Translations under genes and position numbers: made by a program
Source: a virus
Lineage: Duplodnaviria > Heunggongvirae > Uroviricota > Caudoviricetes
DNA: 7,900 bases
Virus record (IMG/VR): IMGVR_UViG_2778261030_000021
Coordinates: 1 to 7,900 of that record
Direction: 5' to 3' (one strand)
Notes under the pieces: model-generated
Databases searched by the model: none
Seen by the model: only the letters and a program-made list of their open reading frames with translations
What the model was told of the DNA's origin: nothing
Part shown: piece by piece, positions 1 through 7,900 of the stretch
Numbering within the stretch: the first letter of the stretch is position 1
Layout: each line of letters starts with the position of its first letter

Positions 1-744
1 GGAAGGTTTAATTACCTGCAACGTACCAAAATCACGCTCTTTGTCGTTCTTCTCTGCACGGGGTACGGATAAAAAGCCTTTTGCTTTTTTGTCACCGTCG
101 CCCACAACCAGATCGCTTTCTTCGGTTTCCGTGAAGGTGTCGCCAATCTCGCCCGTCAGCCATGAAAGGATGTCCACATCGGAAAAATCCACGATTTCCT
201 GCGTGGTGCGCGGGTACGCATAGACCGGATACAGCTTAATGCTCACCTCGTTAATCTGCGGGGTGCTGGTCTGTTCGCGTGCCTTACCCTCTTCACCGTG
301 GTTAACGGTCGCACCGCCAGCGGAAACAAGCTGCTTAAACTCGTTGCTGCTGATTTTCTTCACGGTACAGATGCGGCGCATGGTGGATTCATCCGTCAGC
401 ATTCGCATGATTTCGGTGTTCAGTTCGGGGATAACGGTATAACCACCATCAGCGGGAACGCCTGTACTCAATGCGCGGGTTTCACCTGTCAGAATGTAGT
501 GACGTAGTTCGGCGGGGTCAGTGGTCTGGCTGTTTTTGCCTGGTTTACTGCGCTCTTCGTCAGCAACGGCCTCAAGGCGGGAGATGTCTTTATCGAGTGA
601 TTCAGCTTTAGCGCGTAATTCGTCAAATTTTGCGCCCTCAGCATCGTTAAGGCTGCGGTTTTCTTTTTCCGCGTTCTCCAGCATGTCGCGCATCTGATTT
701 TTAATGGCGGTTTTCTGCTGGCGTAATTCGATTATTCTCGGCAT
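1..744 (-). CDS. Major capsid protein, HK97-fold family (N-terminal ~248 codons; 3' end beyond window start)
   Basis: Minus-strand frame is open from ATG 744..742 to position 1 with no stop, so it is absent from the ORF track. Own translation: MPRIIELRQQKTAIKNQMRDMLENAEKENRSLNDAEGAKFDELRAKAESLDKDISRLEAVADEER... then ...GGYTVIPELNTEIMRMLTDESTMRRICTV...INEVSIKLYPVYAYPRTTQEIVDFSDVDILSWLTGEIGDTFTETEESDLVVGDGDKKAKGFLS. An N-terminal coiled coil followed by these motifs matches my recollection of HK97-type capsid proteins. AGGA lies 8 nt upstream of the ATG. Confidence 0.65.
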   Translation of the reverse strand, partial: MPRIIELRQQKTAIKNQMRDMLENAEKENRSLNDAEGAKFDELRAKAESLDKDISRLEAVADEERSKPGKNSQTTDPAELRHYILTGETRALSTGVPADGGYTVIPELNTEIMRMLTDESTMRRICTVKKISSNEFKQLVSAGGATVNHGEEGKAREQTSTPQINEVSIKLYPVYAYPRTTQEIVDFSDVDILSWLTGEIGDTFTETEESDLVVGDGDKKAKGFLSVPRAEKNDKERDFGTLQVIKPS

Positions 745-781
745 AAAAAAAGTCCTGGGGTTAAGTAAGGAACTCCAGGAC
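745..781 (-). promoter_or_regulatory. Hairpin (stem 752-758 / 775-781, GTCCTGG/CCAGGAC) followed on the minus strand by U7 (751..745) and then the capsid ATG; the capsid Shine-Dalgarno AGGA lies inside the 3' arm
   Basis: Directly read inverted repeat plus T-run. The geometry is that of an intrinsic terminator, but it ends 1 nt before the start codon and sequesters the RBS. Confidence 0.45.
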
Positions 782-956
782 GCGGCAAAAACTCAACCGT
801 TTTTCATAAGGAAATCAGCAATCGCACCGATCGTTTTCCCGCCTGGTAATGAATATTGGCGAGAACATTAACAGGCGGAAAAGTGGCCCCAGCGTCCTGG
901 CACCACGGGCGAGAATAATCATGATTCAGTTCGGGTAAAATATGCCGATCCGCTCA

Positions 957-986
957 GTGAACAACGTGGAACAACCACGAACAAAT
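957..986. repeat. Three 10-bp-phased direct repeats: gtGAACAACg / tgGAACAACc / acGAACAAAt
   Basis: Directly read; copies begin at 959, 969 and 979. Lies in the ORF-poor region upstream (minus-strand sense) of the capsid gene. Confidence 0.5.
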
Positions 987-1003
987 AATTTACAAAAAAT
1001 GAC

Positions 1004-1025
1004 AAAAAGCCGGATTTCTCCGGCT
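1004..1025 (-). terminator. Intrinsic terminator after the 74-aa gene (7-bp stem AGCCGGA/TCCGGCT, 4-nt loop, U-rich tail on minus strand)
   Basis: Hairpin 1008-1025 and A-run 1004-1008 on the plus strand give hairpin-then-U on the minus strand, 11 nt downstream of the stop at 1036-1038. Confidence 0.6.
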
Positions 1026-1035
1026 GTATGGGTGC

Positions 1036-1260
1036 TCAGTCCCTGATCCCTTTCAGAAATTCTATCAATGCATCTATCTGTTCAGGATTTACCGCCAGCA
1101 TTTCACCGGATAGAGCACATCTCACAAAACCATGCTGATCCTTTTCAATCAGTGCGCCCGTCTCCAGGAATGCGCGGTAATCATTGATGCTCATCGTCTC
1201 CATGTTGTCAGCATGGTATTTATCACGCTGTTTTAATATCTCATCAAATTTCATCGGCAT
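1036..1260 (-). CDS. Hypothetical acidic protein, 74 aa
   Basis: ATG at 1260 with AGAGGA about 9 nt upstream; own terminator downstream. No family recognised. Confidence 0.5.
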   Translation of the reverse strand: MPMKFDEILKQRDKYHADNMETMSINDYRAFLETGALIEKDQHGFVRCALSGEMLAVNPEQIDALIEFLKGIRD

Positions 1261-1356
1261 TGTTTTTTTCCTCTGTTGTGTCTGTTTGTTTCAGATAGTA
1301 ACTATGCCTGACCGTGACGAAAACCCGGTAATGCGCCATACCGTTTCAACTGGTGC

Positions 1357-1380
1357 AAAAAAAGCCGGATTTCTCCGGCT
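1357..1380 (-). terminator. Intrinsic terminator after the PerC-like gene; near-identical copy of the 1004-1025 terminator
   Basis: Same AGCCGGATTTCTCCGGCT hairpin (1363-1380) followed on the minus strand by U7 (1357-1363). A 24-bp core is shared between 1004-1027 and 1360-1383. Confidence 0.65.
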
Positions 1381-1386
1381 GTTTGA

Positions 1387-1659
1387 TTAGCTGTCCTGGT
1401 AATTGCGCCATATTTCATCACCAGCACCATCTATACCCATTTCGGCATAAGTGCGATCGACTGCCTTTTTCAGGTCTCCGAAATTATCCGGCGGCTCCGG
1501 TGCCCTCTGTGCCTTCCTTGAACATTCCAGCCGTCGCATCGTGATGTGATGCCGTTCCTTGTCTGTCTCCACCAGCTGCATGACTTCACCCCATCGCGCC
1601 GCCGCCCTCCGGTAAAAGCCTTTCGCCTCCAGTTCCTCCGCTATGCGGTCATGTACCAT
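1387..1659 (-). CDS. PerC-family-like small transcriptional activator, 90 aa (start moved to ATG 1659; the track ORF begins further upstream at a non-ATG codon)
   Basis: MVHDRIAEELEAKGFYRRAAARWGEVM... resembles the AEKLExKGLWRRAA signature I recall for PerC/Pch proteins. Strong SD GAGGGGGGG immediately upstream of ATG 1659. Confidence 0.5.
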   Translation of the reverse strand: MVHDRIAEELEAKGFYRRAAARWGEVMQLVETDKERHHITMRRLECSRKAQRAPEPPDNFGDLKKAVDRTYAEMGIDGAGDEIWRNYQDS

Positions 1660-1669
1660 CGTCCCCCCC

Positions 1670-2080
1670 TCAGAACGAAATATCATCACCGTAAGGGTCA
1701 TCGCCTCCCGCTGGTGGCTGATTACCCTGTGTGCCTGTGGTTTTGCGTCTGTTCCCGCCTGGACGTGCCGCGCGGGCACTGATTACGCTGTCTGCGATAA
1801 CCTGCCAGCCCTGCCGCGTTTCTCCGTTCTGTCCGGCCCACTGGCTTACCTGCATCGTGCCGGATACGCTGGCAACATCGCCTTTTTGATGTTTAGCCAG
1901 GAAGTCGGCCTGTTTGCCAAATGCGATGACCGATAACCATAACGTCGCCTGTCCGTCCTGTGCCTGGCTGCATGGCAACGATACCGCCATACGCGCCAGC
2001 GTCATCGGTGTGCCCTTGCTGGTCTGTTTTACCTGCGGGTCGTCCACCAGCCGCCCGTAAGCGGCTATCTGTGCCGTCAT
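1670..2080 (-). CDS. ssb: Single-stranded DNA-binding protein (SSB-like OB fold), 136 aa
   Basis: Pattern GRLVDDPQV...TLWLSVIAFGKQADFLAKHQKGDVASVSGTMQVSQWAGQNGETRQGWQVIADSV aligns by eye with E. coli SSB (G.L..DPE...W..V.FGK.AE...KG..V..G....W.D.G.R), and the acidic tail DDPYGDDISF resembles the SSB C-terminal DDDIPF tip. ATG 2080 with GAGAGGTGG SD; start overlaps the upstream stop (ATGA). Confidence 0.75.
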   Translation of the reverse strand: MTAQIAAYGRLVDDPQVKQTSKGTPMTLARMAVSLPCSQAQDGQATLWLSVIAFGKQADFLAKHQKGDVASVSGTMQVSQWAGQNGETRQGWQVIADSVISARAARPGGNRRKTTGTQGNQPPAGGDDPYGDDISF

Positions 2081-2322
2081 AATTCCACCTCTCCGGTTTT
2101 AACGTTGATGGTTGTTACCTGTTCCGCTTCGGCAATCTCCCGTTCTGTCAGCGTGGCAAAGTTTGCCGCTGCTGTGGTCATGAATGCGCTTATCAGTTCG
2201 GGATGTGCTTTCGCGTATCCTTCCCCGGCGTTGCGGTCGATGATTTTTATCGCCACCCTCAGCCAGTGTTCTGTCAAATCAAGGGCGTGAGATTGTGGTT
2301 TTTTGGCGTGCTTCGTTGTCAC
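2077..2322 (-). CDS. Hypothetical protein, 81 aa (GTG start)
   Basis: Codon at 2322..2320 is GTG with GAGGT about 9 nt upstream; stop overlaps the ssb start. No family recognised. Confidence 0.45.
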   Translation of the reverse strand: MTTKHAKKPQSHALDLTEHWLRVAIKIIDRNAGEGYAKAHPELISAFMTTAAANFATLTEREIAEAEQVTTINVKTGEVEL

Positions 2323-2367
2323 AGGCTTTACCTCACAGCAATAAAATAAAATTTTTGCATTTCAACC

Positions 2368-2597
2368 CTTCACCTGTTCACCTTTTGCAATTTTCCCTTT
2401 TTATTCATGATGTTAAGGGGTGAACAGTTTCACAAAAACTATTCACCAACTGTTCACCACTGTTCACCCTTAAAGCTCAATAAAGAATCAAAAAGGTGAA
2501 CAGTGAATAGTTTGGTGAACAGTTCATAAATAACTGTTCACCCTATAATATACTGATATAAAAGACATTTATTGCAGGCTGAACAGTGGTGAACAGT
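2368..2597. repeat. Iteron array: at least 9 full copies of the octamer TGTTCACC / GGTGAACA in both orientations plus partial copies; putative replication origin (P4 ori/crr type)
   Basis: Directly read: TGTTCACC at 2375, 2451, 2461 and 2536; GGTGAACA at 2419, 2495, 2514 and 2589; partials at 2368, 2441, 2503 and 2579. The array starts 13 bp beyond the primase stop. As I recall, TGTTCACC is the type I iteron bound by P4 alpha protein. Confidence 0.7.
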
Positions 2598-2609
2598 TAT
2601 TCCATAAGT

Positions 2610-4427
2610 TTAATTTTTTCCATCGTCATTTGTGACCGATGCACATGATGGCATCCAGTCTTCTGAATCCTCTGTCAGGGTCACATTTGAACGCAAACCG
2701 TGCTTCGTTTTCCGTTTCATATACTCCCTGCCATATTCCGCCATTGCCCCCGGCATATCTTTACCGAAGCGCGTCAGTGTTACAGGTTTACCGAATCCGT
2801 GTGCCCTCATATATGCCAGATAGGCGTGATAAAGATACCTGCGCGGACTGAACGGAATAATTTCGGCATTACCCACTAACAGACCATCACACATTACCGA
2901 CGACATGAGATAGCCGCAGAAGTCCACCAGCGAATCGCCCTCGCGTTTTATCACCAGAGCTTCTTCTGATTTCTGCTGCTCATACAGCAGGCGTTTAGCT
3001 TCGTCCTGGTCAGAAAAACGAGTAAGCAGGTGGCGAATCACAACCGCCAGCTCTCCTTCTATTTTTTCTGCCAGCATGGGGTCGCGTTCGTTTTCCGGTA
3101 CAACCTCCGAAAAATTGAATATCACCCGACGACGTGAAATCCCCCCGCTGCGGTCACTGAATGACATGGCGTTATTGTTCACCGCCAACACTACCGCCTG
3201 AATGCGTGTTGAGTAGGGGGCTTTATGCTTCGGGTCGATTGCCACCTTGTCACCGCCTGTAATGGCCTTAATTCCTGCGCCATCACCAGCGTAACGGGTC
3301 ATATCCGGCATGATAATCAGCGAAAAGCCAACCACTAACGCGCGTTCCCTGGCATCTTCCAGCGCCTTCATGCTTGCCGATACCGTGTTGGCCTTACCCG
3401 CCAGCATGGTGCAAATCTCCGCCATCACGCTTTTACCACTTCCCCCTGGACCTGTTACCTCAATGAATAACTGCCAGTCGTACCGGTTCGCCAGCACCAT
3501 GAATAATGCAGCCAGTACGCGATCCGCCTTGCGGTCATTCTCAGCCACCGAACGGCGTAACCACTTCCAGAAATTCGGCGCATGTGTTGCCAGCGTTTCC
3601 CCCTCTGCTGGTGGGCTGAAAGGTAATTCACTGGCAATTAACAACCAGTCGTTTTTGTTATGCTCCCGAAAATTACCTGTTCTGGTATCAAATACCCCGT
3701 TACTGAATCCAATCAGGTTACGGGCTGTATTCCCCATTACAGGCAAACTTAACTTCATGGTATCGACCGCCGATTTAATGGCGTTCTGCGAATAGCTGAT
3801 CTCCGCATCAATGAAAATCTGTGCCATAGCTCGCTGTAATTCTTTATCCTGTACTGGCTCCCATACAACGCCGTTGTAATGGTGAACAGTGTCAGAGTCA
3901 GCATGAATCGCCAGTTCACCGCCATAATGTGCCAGGAGAACTTCGCCGCGTTGACTTGCTCCCATCTGGTTAAGCGCCAGTGATGAAGCGTTATCGTCTT
4001 TTACCCGCTCTTTTTTCTTTACAGGCAGTTCAACTACCTTTTTCTTTTCCGCCTGCTCTGCCCGTTCACGTTCCAGATATTCGCGCCAGTTCTCCCGTTT
4101 CTGGCTGTGCATTCCTTCAGGGTAATAATCAGCATCCCTGACACCTGCCGCTGCCAGTTTCTGCCCGATGGTATTAACAAGCCCCGGACGCAATAACCCC
4201 GCCTGGTAGAGACGCACCCGATAGCGTCCGTCCGGTACGATTTGCAGCTTATCCAGTTCGGCAAGTTGTTGTTCTCCAAGCCAGACAGGAGGCACGCTGT
4301 CGCCAGCCAGTCGCCCGTCCTGTTCCTGCCACTGCTTCGCATGTGCCCACGCATCATTACCCGCAAAAATGATGACTTCCGTCATTTTGTCACGCGGCTG
4401 GTGTTTTAAATTTGGCGCTTTTTTCAT
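2610..4427 (-). CDS. Replication primase-helicase of the P4-alpha / D5 (SF3 helicase) family, 605 aa (start moved from track position 4442 to ATG 4427)
   Basis: Walker A TGPGGSGKS within a D5-like region. The track ORF begins at a GTG (4442); the first ATG (4427..4425, MKKAPNLKHQ...) has GGAGAGAG upstream and overlaps the stop of the preceding gene (ATGA). Confidence 0.85.
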   Translation of the reverse strand: MKKAPNLKHQPRDKMTEVIIFAGNDAWAHAKQWQEQDGRLAGDSVPPVWLGEQQLAELDKLQIVPDGRYRVRLYQAGLLRPGLVNTIGQKLAAAGVRDADYYPEGMHSQKRENWREYLERERAEQAEKKKVVELPVKKKERVKDDNASSLALNQMGASQRGEVLLAHYGGELAIHADSDTVHHYNGVVWEPVQDKELQRAMAQIFIDAEISYSQNAIKSAVDTMKLSLPVMGNTARNLIGFSNGVFDTRTGNFREHNKNDWLLIASELPFSPPAEGETLATHAPNFWKWLRRSVAENDRKADRVLAALFMVLANRYDWQLFIEVTGPGGSGKSVMAEICTMLAGKANTVSASMKALEDARERALVVGFSLIIMPDMTRYAGDGAGIKAITGGDKVAIDPKHKAPYSTRIQAVVLAVNNNAMSFSDRSGGISRRRVIFNFSEVVPENERDPMLAEKIEGELAVVIRHLLTRFSDQDEAKRLLYEQQKSEEALVIKREGDSLVDFCGYLMSSVMCDGLLVGNAEIIPFSPRRYLYHAYLAYMRAHGFGKPVTLTRFGKDMPGAMAEYGREYMKRKTKHGLRSNVTLTEDSEDWMPSCASVTNDDGKN

Positions 4428-4723
4428 TTCTGCTCTCTCCACGCGGCAATCATGTTTTTCAGTTCCTGTAGTTTTTTATCAACATCCATACATGACACAT
4501 GGTTATTTCTGGAAAGCGGGATTTCCCGCCTGAATCTGCTAATAAAGATCTCCACGTTCAGCGAACTATGAAATGAATAGCCATCACGAATAAAATACAC
4601 ACGGTCAAACATCAGTTCTTTTACCGTTACTCTGTTACCGTTCTTATCCAGATAAATAGCGCCGGGGATAATTTTGGGGTGTGCATAACCGCTGGCAGTC
4701 AAGCCAGATAAATACGTTCTCAT
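4424..4723 (-). CDS. Hypothetical protein, 99 aa, translationally coupled to the primase
   Basis: ATG 4723; stop TGA overlaps the primase ATG. No family recognised. Confidence 0.55.
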   Translation of the reverse strand: MRTYLSGLTASGYAHPKIIPGAIYLDKNGNRVTVKELMFDRVYFIRDGYSFHSSLNVEIFISRFRREIPLSRNNHVSCMDVDKKLQELKNMIAAWREQK

Positions 4724-4729
4724 GATTAT

Positions 4730-5050
4730 TTATCTCAGATTTGAATCAGTATTCGCTTTCTCTATGGCATTTAATGCATCTGTGGCATTTTCAATGGTGC
4801 ACCGTAACGAAATATCAAACTGCCCAAGCATTGCCAGTAACAAGCCAATATTACCCATGTCAATGCGCATAGCCTTTTCGTCATATTCCTCATTTTCTGA
4901 CGCATGCCACATCAGGCTACCAATTGACGAAACAGCCATTGATATATTGTCAGTAGCCCCATCCGCAGCGGAATAAACCTTTTTAGCAATATCATGCTCA
5001 CAGTTAAAATGCGGATTAATCAGGTACTGGTAATTGGTCATGTCAGGCAT
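4730..5050 (-). CDS. Hypothetical acidic protein, 106 aa
   Basis: ATG 5050..5048 overlaps the end of the upstream small gene. Strongly acidic composition (about 17 D/E against 7 K/R). Confidence 0.55.
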   Translation of the reverse strand: MPDMTNYQYLINPHFNCEHDIAKKVYSAADGATDNISMAVSSIGSLMWHASENEEYDEKAMRIDMGNIGLLLAMLGQFDISLRCTIENATDALNAIEKANTDSNLR

Positions 5051-5246
5051 GGAACACCCCCTGACGAATACGGGCGGCGAATACCATCACGCAGCCATCA
5101 GGAGATTGCTGACGCGCGTCCTGTTCGCTGGTGGCCTCAATGGTAATCACGCGCGGTTGTGCCGTGCTCAGGGCGATAAAACGCCAGATGTATTTATTCA
5201 GGTTGTGCGAGTCCCGCCCTTGCGGGTGTGTGGTATGATTTAACAT
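5043..5246 (-). CDS. Small first gene of the leftward operon, 67 aa (possibly Icd/Kil-like; function uncertain)
   Basis: ATG 5246..5244 with GAGGT 5-6 nt upstream; MLNHTTHPQGRDSHNLNKYIWRFIALSTAQPRVITIEATSEQDARQQSPDGCVMVFAARIRQGVFHA. It is the C-terminal 67 codons of the 341-aa track ORF, which I reject as a whole. The Icd-like guess rests on position only. Confidence 0.5.
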   Translation of the reverse strand: MLNHTTHPQGRDSHNLNKYIWRFIALSTAQPRVITIEATSEQDARQQSPDGCVMVFAARIRQGVFHA

Positions 5247-5342
5247 AGCTACCTCGATATTCTTGCTATCGTTGGTGGTTAGACGCCCGGTTAGTGTTAG
5301 CGCACTGCCGGGTTTCGTCGTTTCTGCACCTTGCATCAACAA

Positions 5343-5396
5343 GGTGTTTAACACCAATTTAAGCCCTGGTGTTAAACACGTCAAGTGTTGAACACT
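5343..5396. promoter_or_regulatory. Three 13-bp palindromic operator-like sites (G/A)GTGTT-N-AACAC(C/T) in the divergent promoter region
   Basis: Directly read: 5343-5355 GGTGTTTAACACC (perfect), 5368-5380 GGTGTTAAACACG (one mismatch), 5384-5396 AGTGTTGAACACT (perfect). The third overlaps a plus-strand -35-like TTGAAC (5388-5393), with a weak -10 CATACT at 5411-5416. Confidence 0.55.
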
Positions 5397-5445
5397 TATT
5401 TTTTTTCCTGCATACTGCATTTGTTTTTTGTAAGGGGTACACAAC

Positions 5446-5625
5446 ATGGCGACAAAAGCAGTAAACGCAAAATCACAAACAGTTGCGGCAAGGGTTCCGC
5501 ATGAAGTTATGAACAATGTTGAGGCGGTAAAAATGCCTGGTGAAAGTACAGGGCAGTTTGTAACAGCAGCATTAAAGCGAGAAGTTGAATACCGCCAGCG
5601 TCGCAAGGCCAAAGAGCAGGAATAA
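5446..5625 (+). CDS. Small DNA-binding protein, probable ribbon-helix-helix fold, 59 aa
   Basis: Below the track's size cut-off. ATG 5446 with AAGGGG 8 nt upstream; MATKAVNAKSQTVAARVPHEVMNNVEAVKMPGESTGQFVTAALKREVEYRQRRKAKEQE. Beta-strand (TVAARVP), helix, Gly turn, helix pattern typical of Arc/CopG-type proteins. Confidence 0.5.
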   Translation: MATKAVNAKSQTVAARVPHEVMNNVEAVKMPGESTGQFVTAALKREVEYRQRRKAKEQE

Positions 5626-5682
5626 CCATCACCAGCGCCGTGGTGTAAGGTATTACGGCGCATTGCTATGCAGGACAACACA

Positions 5683-5856
5683 ATGACCGATAAAGAATTG
5701 ACCAAAACATTATCACCGGCACGGAAAAGACGGCGCAGAAAGATAGAGCATGAATCAGAAAGATTCGCGCCATGTGCTTTTGCCCTTGAGCAATTCCTTA
5801 AAGAGTACAGGGAAAAGCGCTCATTGCAGGTATGGCAACGAACTGAACCAGACTGA
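5683..5856 (+). CDS. Hypothetical Arg-rich small protein, 57 aa
   Basis: ATG 5683 with AGGA 7 nt upstream (the track's longer ORF starts at 5668). Contains ARKRRRRK; rare AGA/AGG/CGG codons. Confidence 0.4.
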   Translation: MTDKELTKTLSPARKRRRRKIEHESERFAPCAFALEQFLKEYREKRSLQVWQRTEPD

Positions 5857-5950
5857 TAGCATTGCCCACCAGCCTGATAGCGACTATCATTGCCGTTCTT
5901 ATGTTTGGGATCACACACACAAACGGCGCAGCGGGTTATCTGTTCAGAAA

Positions 5951-5979
5951 GGCGGCTCCATTTCGGGGCCGCTTTTTTT
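5951..5979 (+). terminator. Intrinsic terminator of the plus-strand two-gene unit
   Basis: Stem 5952-5959 GCGGCTCC pairs with 5965-5972 GGGGCCGC (one G-U), 5-nt loop, then T7 at 5973-5979. Confidence 0.7.
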
Positions 5980-6120
5980 ATTCCTGAAAAACCCCAATTT
6001 TGTTGTTTTTCAGTTTCACCAGGGCGAACGAATCCCCGCCCACGTTCGGGCGCATATTCAATCTTCATGGTTATATCTCTGTATTAGTGGATGTGTGGCG
6101 GCTGCGTGCCGCCAGCGTGA

Positions 6121-6309
6121 TTAATGAACTGCCTTGCAGCTATCCTTCCAGGCCAGAACCTCGGATAAAGACCAGCCAACGGAACGACCGCCAAGTTTAC
6201 GACGTGATGGGAATTGTCCGGCCTTTTCCAGGCGGTAGCGGCATGAGCGGCTAAGGCCTGTTAGCTTTTCGCATTCTTTTTCACGTATAAACCGATCAGT
6301 GCTTAACAC
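6121..6309 (-). CDS. alpA: AlpA-family phage transcriptional regulator / excisionase-like HTH protein, 62 aa (GTG start)
   Basis: EKLTGLSRSCRYRLEKAGQFPSRRKLGGRSVGWSLSEVLAW matches the AlpA signature I recall (TG.SRST.Y......FP....LG.R.V.W...E...W). GTG at 6309..6307 with AAGGGG 5 nt upstream; no in-frame ATG is available. Confidence 0.8.
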   Translation of the reverse strand: MLSTDRFIREKECEKLTGLSRSCRYRLEKAGQFPSRRKLGGRSVGWSLSEVLAWKDSCKAVH

Positions 6310-6590
6310 TATTGCCCCTTTCGTTTCTTAAAGAGTTATTTCGTGTTCTATTGCGTTGGGATGTGTCTGATTGTGTCAGGATGATTCAGAGTTGGCAAAT
6401 GTTGAGGACGTATGGTTTACAGAAAGAGGAATAATCAGGATAAAATCATTTAAATTCATGTTAATACAAAGGCATAAAATATTGTTTCATGCCTTTTTTC
6501 TCGCTATTTAAAGAGTGATTCGCTAGTGTATAAAAAACCAGTAACACATTAAAAATCAGCCACTTATAAATCTGTACACTTTTTCGCCTC

Positions 6591-6640
6591 TTGTTCGTAG
6601 TTGTTCCGCATTGTTGCTCATTGTTGCACGTTGTATCTGT
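6591..6640. repeat. Five 10-bp-phased direct repeats beginning TTGTT (TTGTTCGTAG / TTGTTCCGCA / TTGTTGCTCA / TTGTTGCACG / TTGTATCTGT)
   Basis: Directly read, exact 10-bp register, between the integrase stop and the alpA upstream region. Confidence 0.5.
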
Positions 6641-6649
6641 TCGCATATC

Positions 6650-6665
6650 CAGTATGCGCATACTG
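6650..6665. repeat. Perfect 16-bp palindrome CAGTATGCGCATACTG
   Basis: Directly read. Lies 18 bp beyond the integrase stop and is flanked by A/T runs. Confidence 0.55.
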
Positions 6666-6682
6666 AAAAAATACGAAAAAAA

Positions 6683-7900
6683 TTATTTTCTTCTGGCTAC
6701 TGGTAGCGTGGTTACGTTTTCATGTGTTCCCGCCAGTATCCCTAACCGCTCCATCCACATATCCAGCGCATTGCGTTTAGCATCCAGATAACGGGAATGA
6801 TTATAAACTCGCTGCATTCCTGGCATCTGGTGGCCTGTAAGCTGCTCCACGACATGCGGATCAACGCCTAAATCGTTCAGCATGGTTGTAAAGGTGCGCC
6901 GGATGTCATGCAGTGACCAGTGAGGGTGATTAAGCCTCCTGTGCGCTAATCTTCCATACTGCGATACGCTGGCCTCCTGTTTCACTGCCCCCAGCAATAA
7001 GCCCGTGTGCCTGTTCTGCTCCACCAGCTGCGTGACGAACGGCAGGATCGCTTCCGGTATGGGCCGGAATATTGCGACCTTCGTTTTGCTGTGCTCCTTC
7101 GGAACGGTCCATAGCATTTCCGTAAAATCCCACTCCCCGATCTCTGATAACCTCAGTTCTACCGTTCTGGCTCCGAAGACAATCAGGAGGCGGATTAACG
7201 CGACGTAGTAAGGGGAAAATATTTTTTTATCCAGCGCCTGCAATAACTCGCCCAGTTCTTTGGTGCTTAAGACACGTTCGCTTATATCCGGTTTTTTCCC
7301 AACGTCCGCCACGTTCAGATCGTCCAGAACGTTGCTGATTGCATAGCGCCGCCTACGGCAGAACTTAAGCGCCTGTTTGCACGCCTGTAGCACGAATCCG
7401 GCAGTAACAGGCGTTCGCTTTGCCACCTGGTCAAAACAGGCCAGCCAGTGCCGTAGCTCGCATTTATCCAGCGGCATAGCACCAATCTGCTGTATTACGT
7501 GATTATTAAGTCGCCTTTTCAGGGCGATATAATCCACGCGGTTTTCCTTTACGTAAGACTCAAGCCAGTAGGTGAGCGCATCGCCAACCGTTACGGGCTT
7601 TAACGCTTCCTGTACGGTGTAATTCATCTCATGACGTGGATTTTTCCCCTCAGCCAGCCATGCGCGGCACTGGGCGGCTTTTTCCCTGGCTGCTTTCAGA
7701 CTCAGATCAGGATAATTTCCCAGCTTAATACGTTCCGGTCGTGTCTCTCTTCCCGTTCCTGCCCTGTAAGTGAAATACCAGGTTAATTTCCCTGATGTTA
7801 AATATTTCACGCTCAGATTTCCGCCATCGCTATAAAACGTGTTTTTCTCCGCTGGCTTACCATGAAGTTTCCTTAGCAATGTGTCGCTCAGTTTGTTCAT
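6683..7900 (-). CDS. int: Tyrosine recombinase / phage integrase (P4-type), 405 aa
   Basis: 405-aa ORF starting with ATG exactly at the window edge (the true start could lie upstream). Integrase-like C-terminal region including HDIRRTFTT and the tail ...MQRVYNHSRYLDAKRNALDMW with candidate catalytic Tyr. Confidence 0.88.
   Translation of the reverse strand: MNKLSDTLLRKLHGKPAEKNTFYSDGGNLSVKYLTSGKLTWYFTYRAGTGRETRPERIKLGNYPDLSLKAAREKAAQCRAWLAEGKNPRHEMNYTVQEALKPVTVGDALTYWLESYVKENRVDYIALKRRLNNHVIQQIGAMPLDKCELRHWLACFDQVAKRTPVTAGFVLQACKQALKFCRRRRYAISNVLDDLNVADVGKKPDISERVLSTKELGELLQALDKKIFSPYYVALIRLLIVFGARTVELRLSEIGEWDFTEMLWTVPKEHSKTKVAIFRPIPEAILPFVTQLVEQNRHTGLLLGAVKQEASVSQYGRLAHRRLNHPHWSLHDIRRTFTTMLNDLGVDPHVVEQLTGHQMPGMQRVYNHSRYLDAKRNALDMWMERLGILAGTHENVTTLPVARRK

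Follow-up and report, generated by a model that had tools for sequence, protein, structure and literature searches.

A capsid gene beside P4-like replication genes: a 7.9-kb viral sequence as the probable integrase-proximal part of an Escherichia coli capsid-forming island

The stretch of DNA analysed here (hereafter, the window) consists of the 7,900 nucleotides at positions 1 to 7,900 of the IMG/VR virus record IMGVR_UViG_2778261030_000021, and it holds the start of an HK97-type major capsid gene together with satellite-type genes for integration, regulation and replication. The elements with which it has to be compared are the phage-inducible chromosomal islands of the capsid-forming type (cf-PICIs), with EcCIEDL933 as their prototype, the classical phage-inducible chromosomal islands (PICIs) and the satellite P4. 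All open reading frames (ORFs) of the window are intact, and all its genes but one, a YlcI/YnfO gene on the plus strand, lie on the minus strand. The features that matter most are the following:

1 to 744, minus strand: HK97-type major capsid protein, first 248 of 385 codons (Pfam, NCBIfam, phrog and PDB matches)
744 to 469, minus strand: N-terminal scaffold-like delta region of the capsid protein, residues 1-92 (motif, and fold from the EcCIEDL933 structure paper)
2375 to 2595, no strand assigned: putative replication origin, A+T-rich, directly downstream of rep, with eight exact copies of the octamer TGTTCACC, oriented either way, and some degenerate ones
2610 to 4427, minus strand: Rep, 605 aa (profile matches, alignment with P4 alpha)
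6121 to 6309, minus strand: AlpA regulator, 62 aa (PF05930, E 5e-18)
6683 to 7900, minus strand: tyrosine integrase with Arm-DNA-bind_3 and Phage_integrase domains (profile matches)

The capsid reading frame begins with an ATG at 744-742, preceded by an AGGA ribosome-binding site, and stays open for 248 codons up to the window edge, with a product that starts MPRIIELRQQK. Coding on the plus strand of 1-760 was rejected, as its frames are closed, without any long ORF, and it is the minus strand that carries the gene. The 248-aa fragment matches Pfam PF05065 Phage_capsid (E 6.8e-27), NCBIfam TIGR01554 major_cap_HK97 (157.8 bits for a cut-off of 27.5), phrog_10 major head protein (E 3.6e-49) and, over all 248 residues, PDB 9GYI chain B (E 1.1e-157); it also matches the capsid protein of the Rhodobacter capsulatus gene transfer agent (RcGTA), PDB 6TB9 (E 1e-20). 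Since four independent references agree, the HK97-type capsid gene announced by the initial annotation is real and is cut only by the window edge. The fold follows from the same comparison, 244 of the 248 residues (98%) being identical to the EcCIEDL933 capsid protein, which is the solved HK97-fold structure 9GYI. Genomes with 100% identical DNA across the 744 capsid bases carry a 385-aa gene, so that the stop at residue 248 reflects the window edge and not a broken gene. Among 5,426 complete E. coli genomes, 361 contain these 744 bases, at least five of them with 100% identity; Shiga toxin-producing E. coli (STEC) lineages such as O26, O111 and O157 are included in the 361.

By cryo-electron microscopy, the EcCIEDL933 capsid (9GYI) is a T=4 shell of 47.5 nm with a canonical HK97 fold; cleavage of its protein takes place at an SxGxxAD motif, and an extra loop occupies residues 227-248 (10.1101/2025.02.11.637232). 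In the window protein, this maturation motif is S93-D99, which places the beginning of the mature part near base 468, and residue 248, at which the fragment breaks off, is the last residue of the prototype's extra loop. The HK97 fold, the protease-removed N-terminal delta region and SxGxxAD are shared with the capsid proteins of HK97 (gp5, PDB 1OHG) and RcGTA (6TB9/6TSU); judging from EcCIEDL933, the differences are a T=4 instead of a T=7 architecture, the lack of the K-N crosslink and the connector loop at 227-248.

EcCIEDL933 was located in E. coli O157:H7 EDL933 (NZ_CP008957.1, about 1,680,329-1,694,760) and compared directly with the window. The gene order is the same in the prototype and in the window element; AlpA is identical at 61 of 62 positions (98%) and the integrase (Int) at 372 of 405 (92%). 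At the DNA level, window positions 1-2257, which include the genes for a single-strand DNA-binding protein (SSB), a PerC-family protein and a 74-aa protein, match at 95.9%, and positions 5633-7897 at 92.4%, whereas the central block between them (2258-5632) finds no DNA match. This block holds the rep gene: the EcCIEDL933 Rep is of the DUF927 type, as opposed to the D5_N/SF3/Pox_D5 (P4-alpha-type) Rep of the window, and only the first 145 residues or so of these otherwise unrelated proteins are common (69% identical). TGTTCACC is absent from EcCIEDL933, so that Rep type and iteron type go together, and the window element is therefore, from its sequence, a replication-module variant of the known cf-PICI family. 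Such sequence comparisons establish here which genes the element has and in what order, how close it is to the prototype and that its Rep and octamers are homologous to P4 alpha and the P4 iterons. As for the prototype itself, island transfer was shown by mutagenesis to require the capsid, protease, portal, connector, HNH and terminase genes of EcCIEDL933, which phage transfer does not require (bioRxiv 10.1101/2022.09.08.507074); tail genes are the only helper phage genes required, and alpA is essential for induction (Alqurainy et al., 10.1101/2022.09.08.507074).

What lies beyond the capsid edge of the window can be read in its relatives. Megablast of the window against the 5,426 complete E. 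coli genomes yielded 60 that cover at least 80% of it. Strain 2313 (L001) aligns with the whole window at 97.6%, and strain 10153 (L002) matches 1-5312 at 99.6% and 5595-7900 at 99.3%. In both, the 385-aa capsid gene is followed by genes for an HK97-family prohead protease, a portal, a head-closure protein, a head-tail connector and an HNH endonuclease, then by a 60-aa gene, a P27-family small terminase (TerS), the large terminase (TerL), a 93-aa gene and, finally, host genes (tqsA/mdtJI or type III secretion genes of the ETT2 cluster). A search of public assemblies for the identical 605-aa Rep added four further elements of this kind (L006, L007, L009, L011), and all six, which either match most or the whole of the window at 97.6-99.6% or carry this same Rep, hold the full packaging operon followed by host genes. 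The per-gene Pfam lists of these relatives contain no tail or holin family. The relatives and EcCIEDL933 have the same packaging operon: the accessions of TerS and of the 60-aa and 74-aa proteins are identical, several others are common to one relative or the other, and the L001 capsid protein has the same RefSeq accession as that of EDL933. The short core TGCTGTTAT is repeated 14,838 bp apart in L002 and L009. The element splits tqsA in these two genomes and lies between ETT2 genes in L001, whereas EcCIEDL933 is integrated between roxA and phoQ. The right half of the window's own copy, beyond its edge, is presumably the same as in these near-identical elements.

An ordinary or decaying prophage, with its head module lying by chance beside an integrase/primase block, would also account for capsid and packaging genes that are phage-type and that bear generic phage names in RefSeq. 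We consider this extremely improbable: in each near-identical copy that was examined, the 93-aa gene beyond terL gives way to host genes, the whole element measures 14.8 kb with no tail or lysis family in the relatives, and every window ORF is intact. Moreover, the capsid protein is at most 40% identical to those of genuine phages; the few matches at 58-66% are short or unexamined records, of which only vB_KppS-Ant was opened, and this one holds int, primase and head genes.

We now turn to what defines a cf-PICI in the Methods of 10.1101/2025.02.11.637232 and in SatelliteFinder (PMC10085698). The window has an integrase at one end (6683-7900), the regulation module expected in Proteobacteria (AlpA, 6121-6309), a replication module (Rep at 2610-4427, iterons at 2375-2595 and SSB) and its own major capsid protein (744-1, 248 of 385 residues in the window). 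The genes for protease, portal, adaptor, connector, HNH, TerS and TerL lie outside the window in all six near-identical elements and are expected likewise in its own copy; the relatives have no lysis genes and no complete tail module, the corresponding flank of the window's own copy lying outside the window, and the distance of 14,838 bp between cores falls within the size of about 10-18 kb. The window is, thus, almost certainly the integrase-proximal 7.9 kb of an E. coli cf-PICI of about 14.8 kb, a sibling of EcCIEDL933. The initial annotation had offered a cf-PICI-like capsid-forming satellite as one of two possibilities, and this was the correct one, the left flank, the fold and the size all agreeing with it. 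The capsid gene does lie beside P4-like genes, but elements of this kind are already known: cf-PICIs were published in 2022-2023, and the novelty that the annotation implied is not borne out.

Classical Gram-negative PICIs (EcCICFT073 type) resemble the window in their int-alpA-rep left arm, down to an identical Rep in L008 and L010; the window differs from them by its HK97-type capsid gene, and its relatives by their portal, connector and TerL. Classical PICIs use helper capsid proteins, and portal, connector and adaptor are forbidden components in the PICI model (PMC10085698); the relatives that carry the window's capsid gene have such genes.

Four points weigh against the assignment to the cf-PICIs. 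The window ends within the capsid gene, its own packaging operon and attachment (att) sites being beyond its edge. The functional experiments are those on the prototype, whose Rep is of another type. Rep is without a recognisable primase domain by which the priming step could be explained. Lastly, a left arm with the identical Rep is also found fused to the lambda-type packaging module of classical PICIs (L008, L010). As an identical left arm can be joined to either packaging type, the left arm alone cannot predict the right arm; the HK97-type capsid start inside the window, however, settles the type of element by itself.

The initial annotation had also described the integration and replication module as P4-like, with an alpha-like primase, and suggested as the other possibility a mosaic between the P4 and PICI lineages. 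Rep consists of a 145-aa N-terminal alpha/beta domain, D5_N, a superfamily 3 (SF3) helicase (DUF5906, Walker A GPGGSGKS) and a C-terminal Pox_D5 DNA-binding domain. Its residues 150-605 are 50% identical to residues 320-776 of P4 alpha (E 2e-162), whereas the Zn_Ribbon_Prim and Toprim domains of alpha (residues 30-299) have no counterpart in Rep; residues 1-145 were matched by no Pfam or NCBIfam model, and a single-sequence structure model of this domain gave nothing decisive. The octamer TGTTCACC occurs in 10 exact copies in the window (8 at 2375-2595 and 2 inside rep) for 0.31 expected, a count reached by none of 200 shuffles. It is the 8-bp "ori type 1 repeat" of the crr and ori regions in the P4 GenBank record (11 exact copies), and a full-text literature search for the bare octamer returned unrelated primer sequences only. 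The iteron region is 71-81% identical to that of the P4 ori and lies just downstream of the rep gene, as does crr in P4. Furthermore, AlpA is 47% identical to P4 Vis (ORF88), and both integrases are arm-type tyrosine recombinases.

The likeness to P4 (NC_001609) goes no further than this. When all 13 P4 proteins were searched by tblastn, only Int (23% identical), the C-terminal part of alpha and Vis were matched; Sid, Psu, Delta, epsilon, cI, cII, gop and beta gave no match at E <= 0.01, either in the window or over the full length of relatives L002 and L009. The core of a P4-like satellite in SatelliteFinder is Int, AlpA, alpha, epsilon, Sid, Delta and Psu (PMC10085698); the sid, delta and psu genes and the epsilon (Ash) derepressor are lacking here, as is the cI region, and of alpha and its iterons we find the helicase/ori-binding two-thirds and identical iterons, with Zn_Ribbon_Prim and Toprim missing. 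In addition, P4 resizes the capsid of P2, whereas the cf-PICI element makes its own. "P4-like" is, thus, accurate for the helicase/ori-binding part of Rep, the iteron octamer and AlpA, Int being only 23% identical, and "alpha-like primase" is overstated because Rep has no primase domain.

A true mosaic, that is to say a P4-lineage satellite that gained an HK97 head module and forms a lineage apart from published cf-PICIs, would draw on exactly these similarities in Rep, iterons, ori region and AlpA; we nevertheless find it very unlikely. Int, AlpA, SSB-PerC and the capsid all match EcCIEDL933 at 92-98% identity, with only the 2258-5632 block differing, and no P4 hijacking gene is present; the identities as they stand point to the EcCIEDL933 clade for Int, AlpA and the packaging genes, and to P4 for Rep only. 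One has to remember that satellites have Int, AlpA and primase-type genes in common and that primase-replicase genes are exchanged among satellite families, a gene flow already described (PMC10085698). The mosaic idea, then, holds for the replication module only: the likeness to P4 is real but narrow, and the element is a cf-PICI with a P4-alpha-type replication cassette, not a P4-lineage satellite.

P4-like elements and cfPICIs co-occur in 379 genomes (PMC10085698), and a replication interaction between the two is not described in the satellite literature cited here. We note as a speculative and rather unlikely consequence that the cf-PICI subgroup with a primase-less, P4-alpha-derived Rep and the P4 octamer could cross-talk in replication with P4-like satellites residing in the same cell, either through firing of the cf-PICI origin by P4 alpha or through binding of the cf-PICI Rep to the P4 ori/crr. 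The island might also need a primase from elsewhere, which the shared 145-aa N-terminal domain would recruit.

By analogy with EcCIEDL933, from which all the functional steps and the binding of iterons by Rep are carried over, a life cycle can be proposed. The island would reside in the chromosome, inserted by its own tyrosine integrase at a short core (TGCTGTTAT in the relatives), until a helper siphophage turns on alpA, leading to excision and expression of the island genes. Rep, with its SF3 helicase and P4-alpha-type C-terminal DNA-binding domain, would bind the TGTTCACC iterons just downstream of its own gene and replicate the island with the island SSB, primers coming probably from outside Rep. 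The packaging operon would begin at the capsid gene (744); the N-terminal 92 residues of the precursor would be removed by the island's HK97-type protease, and the mature protein would form a small T=4 shell with a capacity of about 15 kb. The island's HNH, TerS and TerL would then package its DNA via its own portal, and its head-closure and connector proteins would accept helper-phage tails. For the prototype, dependence on alpA and tail theft (10.1101/2022.09.08.507074) and self-made small capsids (10.1101/2025.02.11.637232) have been documented.

A satellite-type integration/replication block beside a capsid gene is what defined cf-PICIs in 2022-2023, so that the discovery value is small. 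The practical value lies in correct annotation, as RefSeq labels are as generic as "phage major capsid protein" and "DNA primase family protein". A modestly useful point is that the replication module is interchangeable, being of the P4-alpha type in the window and of the DUF927 type in the prototype.

The left arm, too, varies in its partner: in identical form, it is found joined to a cf-PICI packaging module or to that of a classical PICI. In L008 (RRKQ01000003.1, 13644-16964) and L010 (JAOVLY010000003.1, 13663-16982), the window-like left arm, with a 100% identical 605-aa Rep and with the SSB, PerC and 74-aa genes, is followed on the right by Phage_cap_E, HDPD and Nu1-like genes; the junction between the two types of module lies just upstream of the capsid gene.

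The record vB_KppS-Ant mentioned above (L012, LR881103.1, "Escherichia phage vB_KppS-Ant", 16,548 bp) was deposited as a phage from an induced prophage. It carries int, primase, capsid (66% identical), portal, connector, TerS and TerL genes and a 765-aa annotated tape measure protein, and its linear ends lie just upstream of terS; from its gene content it looks like a packaged cf-PICI-type element.

As regards integration, near-identical islands occupy two chromosomal sites (L001, 5334 and 20088; L002, 5375 and 20213). The first of the genes concerned, tqsA, is the autoinducer-2 (AI-2) exporter gene and is left split; at the ETT2 site, the core differs by one base (TGCTGATAT). Just inside the two ends of the element lies the 23-bp tandem motif TGACTACACCAGTGACTACACCG, identical at both (L002, 5458-5480 and 20063-20085; L001, 5417-5439 and 19938-19960), with TAACTACACC as its EcCIEDL933 variant; it looks like putative arm-type integrase binding sites.

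The interval from capsid to Rep holds the following:

745 to 1035, minus strand: intergenic region upstream of the capsid operon
1036 to 1260, minus strand: 74-aa protein, phrog_1957, no assigned function
1387 to 1659, minus strand: PerC-family transcriptional activator, 90 aa (profile matches)
1670 to 2080, minus strand: SSB, 136 aa (profile matches)
2077 to 2322, minus strand: 81-aa protein, phrog_1231, no assigned function

All four genes are small and non-structural. The initial annotation had seen no large structural gene here and had put the capsid gene about 1.6 kb from the primase and iterons; both statements stand, with the capsid start at 744, the iterons at 2375-2595 and the stop codon of Rep at 2610. 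The intergenic region contains the AGGA ribosome-binding site, three TTGTTC repeats spaced 10 bp and an exact CAACGTGGAACAA at 962-974. An intrinsic-terminator hairpin (1025-1008) closes the upstream 74-aa gene, whose product has one RefSeq accession at the matching position in EcCIEDL933, L001 and L002, so the capsid operon sits behind a terminator; another hairpin (1380-1363) follows the PerC gene. Both belong to 27-bp direct repeats (1004-1030 and 1359-1385, 26 of 27 positions identical), each carrying the terminator hairpin GCCGGAGAAATCCGGC and, after it, a run of T residues on the minus strand. In L006 and L011, precisely the 355 bp that separate these repeats are missing, 74-aa gene included, which suggests deletion by recombination between the repeats.

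With up to two mismatches, the 13-mer CAACGTGGAACAA is found upstream of the capsid operon (962-974), as a pair between int and alpA (6601-6613 and 6621-6633) and in both att arms (L009, 6301-6323 and 20916-20928, with the same positions in L004), a placement conserved in EcCIEDL933. It is counted 3 times in the window for 0.30 expected and 6 times in L009 for 0.78, numbers reached by about 1 shuffle in 100-200. This enrichment is only suggestive, and CAACGTGGAACAA may be a candidate binding site of AlpA or Int that links excision with control of the operon.

On the integrase side of Rep, the remaining genes are:

4424 to 4723, minus strand: DUF4222 protein, 99 aa (profile match)
4730 to 5050, minus strand: 106-aa protein, phrog_15327, no assigned function
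5043 to 5318, minus strand: Icd-like domain gene (profile match and annotation in relatives)
5446 to 5625, plus strand: YlcI/YnfO-family gene, 59 aa, inside the variable region downstream of alpA

The integrase start, as annotated in relatives, lies 12 bases past the window end. No similarity was seen between the Icd-like and 106-aa genes and the P4 cI ORF and ORF106, and an Rfam scan of the window (E <= 1) gave sub-threshold matches only (microRNA models on the inverted iterons; symR at 28 bits for a cut-off of 61), with no C4- or CI-type immunity RNA; a scan of the window for tRNA and tmRNA found none. A 341-aa ORF (5043-6068, minus strand) is open in the window and in L006. Only its last 90 or so residues, the Icd-like part, match any family; the remainder is Cys-rich and overlaps the YlcI/YnfO gene of the opposite strand. 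As this ORF is split or annotated as a pseudogene in relatives, most of it is probably non-coding. Bases 5313-5594 form the single block in which the window differs from its 99.5% relatives, in agreement with the variable region noted downstream of alpA in 10.1101/2025.02.11.637232.

Homologues of PerC regulate the locus of enterocyte effacement (LEE) pathogenicity island in enteropathogenic (EPEC) and enterohaemorrhagic (EHEC) E. coli. The island, with its PerC-family gene, is common among the STEC genomes listed as best matches.
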